A DNA stretch of 64,000 nucleotides from Octopus vulgaris. Lineage: Eukaryota. Each line of letters starts with the position of its first letter. The stretch's first letter is position 1. Under the pieces are notes generated by a model that saw only the letters and a program-made list of their open reading frames with translations, had not been told where the DNA came from and did no database searches. Where the stretch lies: positions 22,506,001-22,570,000 of the forward strand of contig OX597820.1 in assembly GCA_951406725.2 (NCBI GenBank), given 5' to 3'. Both the position numbers and the translations under genes were made by a program. Shown here piece after piece: positions 7,032 to 8,027 of the stretch.

Positions 7032-7139
7032 AGACATACATTGTTGTCTTTATCTCTAGAATATCTTTCTTTTGAGTATGTGACAAATAATATTATTATC
7101 AGTATCTTCAGGACAATAAGGCAATAACATACTAAAACC

Positions 7140-7524
7140 ATGGCAGAGGAATTGTCAGATCCTCCATCCATAAAATTACCGTTAAAAGTACCCGACGAGG
7201 CTGAGATAGTTTCAGATTTCTAAAGTTTGAAAATTAGAGATTCCAGTTGTACAGAAGAAAACTTTTTAAAACTTACATTTTTGTCCCTTCACCTCCTCTA
7301 CGAAAAAGAGATCTTTTCGGTTTGAACGGCAGTTTTTAACATAATTTCTAGTTTTGTCTAAGGGATTATTAAAGTATTTTAATGATGTGTCTGTCAACAT
7401 TGTTGACTGCCCTGATGTGAGAGAGAAACCATTTCAATTGGCTGCTGAAGGTATATGCGGAAATCCCTGTCTTGCTGATATTGGAGGTCCTCCTTTTCTT
7501 CTCCCCACATTCCATAAAGAAAAG
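7140..7524 (+). pseudogene. C11orf54: Processed 5' fragment of ester hydrolase C11orf54/PTD012 (DUF1907), interrupted by a 136-nt insertion (7216-7351)
   Basis: Joining 7140-7215 to 7352-7524 gives [83 protein letters not shown]. This aligns by eye to recalled human ...VPSLEELAGVMQKGLKDNFADVQVSVVDCPDLTKEPFTFPVKGICGKTRIAEVGGVPYLLP. Homology stops at 7524. Confidence 0.9.
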
Positions 7525-7533
7525 ATCGAAAAT

Positions 7534-7576
7534 CCACCTGACAAATGTCATTGAAGACATGAAACGATTGTAGTGG
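7534..7576 (+). ncRNA. Type I hammerhead ribozyme motif, probably inactivated (G8>A)
   Basis: CCAC-CTGACAA-ATGTC(attgaa)GACAT-GAAA-CGATTG-TA-GTGG; stems I and II are perfect; both deviations are CpG-type transitions (from CTGACGA and CGATCG). Confidence 0.8.
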
Positions 7577-8027
7577 CGGTTTATTTCTTTATATTAAAAA
7601 TTTTTATGTATTGATTAAGTCTTTCCTTGTTTGTTTTGCAAAATAGTGGTTTTGTCTCAAATTAATATTATATAATATTTTACTATAAAATTGGATTTAA
7701 TCCTAAATCTGATTTTTCCCTGTAAATTTGGATTTATTCCCTAATATTTATTATTACATACATATATATATATATATATATATATATATATATATATATA
7801 TATATATATATATATATATATATATATATATATATATATATATATATATATATATATATATATATATATATATATATAATACATATATATATATATACAT
7901 ACATATATATATATATATATATATATAATATATATATATATATATATATATATATATATATATATATATATGTAAATGTCAAACAATGAAGAACAAGTGC
8001 TCAACACTGCATTGGTGGATTCGTTTG

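Follow-up and report, generated by a model that had tools for sequence, protein, structure and literature searches.

Host exons joined to the splice acceptor of a Penelope-like element in the Octopus vulgaris genome

In a 64,000-nt stretch of the Octopus vulgaris genome (G000:C7:22506001-22570000 of a 2.8 Gb assembly; hereafter the window), four spliced exons of a gene located on contig C6 are joined to part of a Penelope-like element (PLE), and the point at which they meet coincides exactly with the natural splice acceptor of that element. The same kind of join, host donor to element acceptor, can be read directly from the DNA for eight further sources, as can the (TA)n flanks, a fixed PLE 3' end and, in sister insertions, inverted 5' arms. 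We consider it very probable that host exons were spliced onto the PLE acceptor and that the hybrid RNA was then retroposed as a PLE. A fuller account, in which the exons were trapped in cis by a PLE copy that is now lost or unassembled, is one toward which we lean with a good deal less assurance.

Positions 7043-7524 of the window correspond to four exons of a C11orf54/DUF1907 gene that lie at four separate places within G000:C6 28339663-28348292 (Table 1). All internal exon boundaries in this parent are of the AG..GT type, and the last captured exon ends at GAAAAG/gtttgt. The exon 1 segment comprises 5' UTR, an ATG at 7140 and 76 coding nt, and differs from the parent by three substitutions and a 7-nt indel, while the 99-nt and 74-nt exons translate to DUF1907 (Pfam, E 5.5e-20) and match human PTD012/C11orf54 (PDB 1xcr, E 1.6e-13). 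A preliminary description of the window, made from its letters, had placed a leader, an ATG plus 76 nt, segments of 136, 99 and 74 nt and a hammerhead between TA flanks, and these positions were verified. It had also read the block as a spliced host mRNA, and our analysis supports this reading, since each segment maps to its own GT-AG-bounded exon of the unlinked parent, as in a processed gene copy. The 136-nt segment was correctly positioned but is not the "insert" it had been called: it is a spliced cassette exon out of parent intron 1, 136 nt long in the window copy versus 148 nt in the parent, and it contains the end of a dispersed repeat. The parent reading frame is open without the cassette and meets a stop within two codons with it, and the window's own copy, with its early stop, is probably non-functional. 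In all, copy and parent differ by nine substitutions plus indels; RNA editing was rejected as the origin of these differences, as only one of the nine substitutions is A-to-G. The parent itself continues beyond the captured exons, with further coding pieces up to ~C6:28363365. As a separate observation, the cassette exon at G000:C6:28341781-28341928 takes its donor from the dispersed repeat and is known only via the retrocopy.

Table 1. Features of the host-PLE block in the window, and parents located for sister insertions.
Feature	Window position	Strand	Parent	Remarks
Left (TA)n tract	6495..7032	.		Insertion target; left part also within tandem duplication 5239-6041/6041-6839
5' junction filler, 10 nt	7033..7042	+		No match in parent
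3' portion of parent exon 1	7043..7215	+	C6:28339663-28339842	Followed by GT in parent
Cassette exon (stop-introducing)	7216..7351	+	C6:28341781-28341928	Out of parent intron 1; AG..GT bounded
Coding exon, 99 nt	7352..7450	+	C6:28347524-28347622	
Coding exon, 74 nt	7451..7524	+	C6:28348219-28348292	GT donor at parent end
PLE 5'-UTR exon 2 (pLTR part)	7525..7756	+		Starts exactly at the element's splice acceptor; many copies at 98-99% identity (40 of 1659 candidates scored)
Minimal type I hammerhead	7534..7576	+		Stems I and II of 4 and 5 bp; stem III nearly palindromic
Optional "tail"	7680..7756	+		Window copy has the long end
Right (TA)n tract	7758..7971	.		
Insertion L105			C10	2 exons; GC donor
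Insertion L199			C26	3 exons
Insertion L203			C5	Ig-domain family; 7 segments
Insertion L281			C4	6 exons; PNPT1 (PDB E 4e-48)
Insertion L280			C3	3 exons
Insertion L284			C17	4 segments
Insertion L278			C7	5 exons
Insertions L359/L384			C29	One exon, two insertions; host end at GTAAGT

Downstream of the host exons the block ends in PLE exon 2 and then directly in (TA)n, with no poly(A), which verifies the absence of a poly(A) tail noted earlier. No target-site duplication is visible at the insertion, both flanks being (TA)n, the inverted arm is absent from this insertion, and the window holds no second copy of the 7525-7756 tail. Immediately to the left of the block, window positions 5239-6839 form a tandem duplication, 96% identical over ~800 bp, in which the 3' fragment of a LINE is repeated together with its (TA)n tract.

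Typical copies of the tail elsewhere in the genome lie within (TA)n and carry an inverted 5' arm, and among 117 arms the sequence after the acceptor ends at ~155 nt in 50, at ~232 nt in 50 and elsewhere in 17. Long copies show the order of parts: an upstream exon ending GATTAGGAG, an intron, the acceptor TATTTTAG followed by ATCG, the hammerhead exon and an ORF. The intron is of the GT-AG type, runs from GTATGT after GATTAGGAG to TATTTTAG, and measures ~1.1-1.16 kb in five distinct intact copies. One ORF piece (L071) has RT-like motifs and another (L070) a GIY-YIG-like C-terminus, both judged by eye; the two overlap at 93% over 46 residues, and a cysteine-rich linker ahead of EN is likewise a by-eye reading. 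Pfam returned neither an RT nor an EN family for three element ORF pieces, and the Atlas neighbors of the element ORFs are RVT_1/HTH_animal clusters (0.92-0.97). Tandem and inverted pLTRs, an optional tail, microsatellite targets and a 5'-UTR spliceosomal intron beside the hammerhead are all present. Judged from its sequence, the element is most probably a C-terminal EN+ PLE, because the ORF motifs and Atlas neighbors go together with pLTR, tail and target features like those described in the available text of PMC8557442. In L070:5461-6726 (-), an asparagine-rich linker lies between the RT portion of the PLE ORF and its endonuclease portion; such a linker is described for rotifer PLEs in the accessible part of PMC3846280. 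Other PLE insertions, L194 (G000:C5:5552787) and L012/L135 (C1:128.09 Mb), have a non-element 5' part, which in L194 is an inverted copy of flank sequence ~400 bp away.

The preliminary description had proposed splicing of the host mRNA to a hammerhead module derived from a PLE, which the coincidence of donor and acceptor supports. It had also held that absence of the module from the parent intron would mean independent adjacent insertions, which does not follow here, since the join uses the element's own acceptor. A LINE retrocopy with an independent neighboring PLE insertion, an assembly artefact or cDNA contamination could each be imagined to have produced the block. No contig was seen to bridge the host/PLE junction in runs X1, X2, X4 and X5, whose contigs covered the block with holes, and X4 and X5 showed only intron-containing parent alleles; one 65-nt contig of X2 is identical to the copy over the first exon joint, with a short side of 25 letters that falls below the bridging rule. 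Against such origins, nine sites plus indels distinguish copy and parent, the tail carries two G-to-A changes at CpG sites (including 7543, in the hammerhead core), no poly(A) or TA intervenes between host and PLE parts, and the architecture is repeated in twelve sister insertions, in four of which each of the two inverted arms carries the host-PLE junction. It is thus this divergence, the CpG decay and the existence of twelve sister insertions, rather than reads, that make the case for the block being genomic, and we regard an artefact or a pair of unrelated insertions as extremely improbable.

The sister insertions were sought by a pattern search at the acceptor of two PLE subfamilies, in which the PLE side was fixed by the search and the host side was free. 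Including the window, 13 insertions from 12 sources carry foreign sequence at the acceptor among ~1,200 acceptor arms counted, so that the recurrence expected from a genome-wide scan was found. Thirteen is a lower bound, as the search is blind to host exons ending AGGAG in subfamily 1 and to those ending A/T or TTAG in subfamily 2, where 526 of 556 A/T arms fall outside the sample. Subfamily 1 arms end in GGAG (243, the spliced form and the commonest), HAG (68, mostly the intron form), HGAG (9), BG (2) or H (5). Eighty-two of its 84 non-GGAG arms were classed as intron form (51), short tandem intron form (5) or other (26), L105 being the sole foreign-sequence arm among the last; the window and one intron-form copy make up the other two. 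Element variants account for two GGAG arms whose fifth base is unusual. Subfamily 2 has 556 arms ending A/T versus 319 ending TAG. Foreign sequence was present in five of its six VAG arms with its acceptor sequence (the other 15 matches are a subfamily-1 variant), in seven of eight BS arms, in neither of two VTAG arms, and in one of 30 A/T arms sampled from the 556, for which a sister insertion was also found. Exact spliced forms from two donors account for 24 of those 30. The two alternative donors lie 4 nt apart (L353-L382; G000:C10 near 50831300), and spliced forms of both have been retroposed (22 and 2 of the 30 sampled).

In all nine sources that could be located, namely the window and the eight in Table 1, the foreign sequence ends at a host splice donor (eight GT, one GC); eight of the nine contain several exons from which the introns have been removed, and as many as seven host segments are present in a single insertion. 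The search that yielded L359 was made last, when the pattern was already clear, and again gave a donor end. The PNPT1 copy is 98-100% identical to its parent. Two parents belong to multi-copy sets: that of L203 to an immunoglobulin-domain membrane gene family (G000:C5:27.4-29.3 Mb, C28 and C31) and that of L284 to an exon set at G000:C17:67-80 Mb. The other three sources are L195, L196 and L285. In L196, the first exon ends at a donor and the later exons are absent from the assembly, which has a gap 3 kb downstream of that exon. A candidate name for L196, VPS54, received no support from Pfam, PDB or the Atlas. No locus was found for the last 96 nt of L195, the search giving back only its repeat part; its upstream part, L195:1518-1820, belongs to another family of young palindromic repeats, with copies at 99-100% identity, which is either nested within the chimera or was added to it by splicing.

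These ends bear on the possibility that reverse transcription switched from PLE RNA to host mRNA at a short microhomology. The window junction does share AG with the element, and L105 shares GAG, and jumps are frequent in this family, as the inverted arms and the L194 jump to nearby flanking DNA indicate. Against it, each of the nine host ends that could be located is the end of an exon, and five of the nine (TTG, ACG, ATG or GAA) have at most one base in common with the acceptor; as a rough estimate, the chance of eight random breakpoints all falling at exon ends is 4e-13. As a control, junctions inside exon 2 were inspected (45 of 96 matches viewed) and proved to be inversions, stretches of (TA)n, members of other hammerhead families or matches due to chance. 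Two clearly foreign exon-2-internal joins, L172 and L209 (unmapped), are without a TA-capped 5' end. Template switching is therefore largely refuted, and we rate it as very improbable.

The hammerhead at 7534-7576, placed correctly in the preliminary description, is the only type I motif of the window (strict scan; 0 matches in 20 mononucleotide shuffles), although it receives no score from Rfam at gathering and E-value thresholds. Family members have the minimal type I core (CUGANGA ... GAAA ... NUH) and stems I-III; stem I measures 4 bp and stem II 5 bp, while stem III is close to palindromic and pairs as a dimer in a computed fold, in line with the description of PLE hammerheads in the available text of PMC4209133. 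The same text places the end of the Drosophila Penelope intron beside the hammerhead. The window copy has CTGACAA in place of CTGACGA, the family modal sequence (86/112 arms), and is predicted to be inactive because of this core G-to-A change at 7543. At least four more hammerhead subfamilies (L157, L166, L175, L180, L208 and L221) have stem III and tail in common and differ in stem II length. In a retrozyme-like arrangement at L063-L067 (G000:C6:72319132-72319447), 69-nt head-to-tail repeats of acceptor and hammerhead form a hairpin arrangement.

The block had been proposed to be "ribozyme-tagged", and one could suppose that the hammerhead itself tagged or joined the RNAs, by cleavage and ligation or through recognition by the PLE RT. 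Core and stems are kept in four subfamilies, 94% of cells are paired across seven hammerhead sequences with one pair changed on both sides, and trans-mobilization via pLTRs has been published (PMC3846280, as far as its accessible text goes). Set against this, covariation in the seven sequences is not above that of shuffles, the junction lies at the splice acceptor, ~48 nt before the predicted cut site, which every copy spans; PLE hammerhead catalytic mutants inserted normally in vitro, according to the available text of PMC11167929. Because the acceptor sets the junction, the cut site is spanned, the window core is mutated and the mutants were unaffected, the hammerhead looks like a passenger in the capture, the term "ribozyme-tagged" is not supported, and a hammerhead-driven event is very unlikely.

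For the preferred reading, splicing onto the acceptor followed by PLE retroposition, we envisage that a PLE copy in an intron of the host gene, absent from the assembly, would trap the upstream exon via its own acceptor. The spliceosome would join the host donor to the acceptor that ends the PLE 5'-UTR intron, and the PLE RT/EN would copy the hybrid RNA into (TA)n, reverse transcription starting inside element exon 2. Such a start would explain why poly(A) is missing; the accessible portion of PMC11167929 describes initiation at two internal sites that match the tail. That a hybrid was inserted into (TA)n without poly(A) and with PLE hallmarks, as first proposed, is borne out. The least certain step is that the acceptor acted in cis, as part of a PLE copy carried by a different allele that is lost or unassembled; for SVA elements there is precedent for a source that is polymorphic or extinct (PMC12593883 and PMC6139936, in their available text).

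What speaks most strongly against a simple cis reading is the absence of an intronic source in eight parents. In one assembly, none of the eight parent regions examined has a matching PLE acceptor, that is, a sense source element downstream of the captured exon, although gaps or short ranges affect six of them. The expectation that the module would sit in the parent's next intron, preceded by AG, was not borne out: neither tail nor acceptor occurs there or in 102 kb downstream of the C6 parent, a gap-free range that covers all remaining introns, nor in C6:28330001-28450000. Only other subfamilies were found in 183 kb at the C10 parent. No matching acceptor was present in 49 kb at C4, 75 kb at C3 or 185 kb at C29, each with one 100-N gap, or in 70 kb at C7, 19 kb at C26, and 32 and 17 kb at C5, ranges that may stop inside long introns. 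In a list of exact acceptor matches that is complete for C1-C3 and covers part of C4, the C3 parent has no sense acceptor within 3.8 Mb, and the C4 parent has no acceptor within 16 Mb. A subfamily-2 PLE 103 kb downstream of the L105 parent was rejected as a source on its differing hammerhead sequence, and tails resembling those of PLEs close to the parents on C5 and C29 were rejected as members of other families.

These absences invite a second reading, in which PLE RNAs with an unpaired acceptor, from tandem copies or 5'-truncated copies that start inside the intron, take exons of unlinked host pre-mRNAs by trans-splicing before the PLE RT retroposes the hybrid. Many element copies do have an acceptor and no donor, the parents without a matching acceptor include those of very young copies such as PNPT1, and the tails of the two insertions from one C29 exon differ at one base, which two partner RNAs would fit as well as CpG decay. 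Weighing against it, three of the regions are gapped and three are possibly too short, and intronic exon traps would probably be harmful and rare in the population, so that their absence from one haploid assembly is to be expected. Moreover, the exons came from an allele other than the one assembled: in public contigs of other runs, at least two of the nine substitutions, those at 7116 and 7381, are found as parent alleles, and the same is probably true of the 16-nt indel and the shorter cassette exon. Cis trapping is documented for SVA, and our literature search gave no trans-splicing into a PLE. We therefore consider trans-splicing unlikely, if by no means negligible.

PLEs are known for intron retention, for which an antisense template has been proposed as the cause (PMC3846280, in its available text). 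That most copies of two subfamilies are intron-less, and that host exons enter by splicing at this very site, shows that spliced sense RNA is a template, and this evidence bears on the question of PLE mechanism. The resulting retrocopies, 5' halves of mRNAs with at least 13 insertions among ~1,200 acceptor arms, form a class that would escape poly(A)-based pipelines. The inverted hairpin forms, often seen, could give rise to antisense or double-stranded RNA directed at the parent. If trans-splicing were true, poly(A)-independent retrocopies could arise from the 5' end of any expressed gene without insertion in that gene.

LINE-1 processed pseudogenes are intron-less, 5'-truncated gene copies at unlinked sites. 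In contrast to these, the mRNA 5' end is copied here, neither an mRNA 3' end nor a 3' poly(A) is present, and the copy ends in element sequence. Canonical C-terminal EN+ PLEs, as far as described in the accessible text of PMC8557442, PMC4209133 and PMC11167929, share with our element a 5'-UTR intron that ends beside a minimal hammerhead, inverted 5' copies, an optional tail, (TA)n targets and, judging by motifs in our ORF pieces, an RT followed by GIY-YIG; here, by comparison, intron loss is the majority state, the tail measures ~77 nt versus 30-40, and both 3' ends precede the ATG. In Adineta vaga, PLE machinery also moves host sequence, with pLTRs and inverted arms, but the available text of PMC3846280 describes cargo that lies between pLTRs and keeps its introns, with an antisense template proposed, whereas in the octopus the cargo and most element copies are spliced, so that a sense, processed RNA template is required. 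No precedent for exon trapping by a PLE, or for spliced cargo, was found in the open-access literature searched; the accessible parts of PMC6431247 and a 2026 retrozyme preprint describe no spliced cargo.

By analogy, the closest precedent is exon trapping, or 5' transduction by splicing, by SVA elements, of which SVA_F1-MAST2, pt_SVA_D6-STK40 and MRPS18A-SVA are examples in the available text of PMC6139936 and PMC12593883. In both systems, the host part ends exactly at a donor (in nine of nine located sources here), the element part begins at an acceptor within the element, and the hybrid RNA appears to be retroposed; the source copy may be one that is polymorphic or has become extinct. In SVA the acceptor is cryptic, the enzymes are those of LINE-1 and a poly(A) tail is present, whereas the octopus chimeras use the acceptor at the end of the element's own intron, lack poly(A), end at one of two fixed PLE 3' ends, lie in (TA)n targets and carry up to seven host exons.
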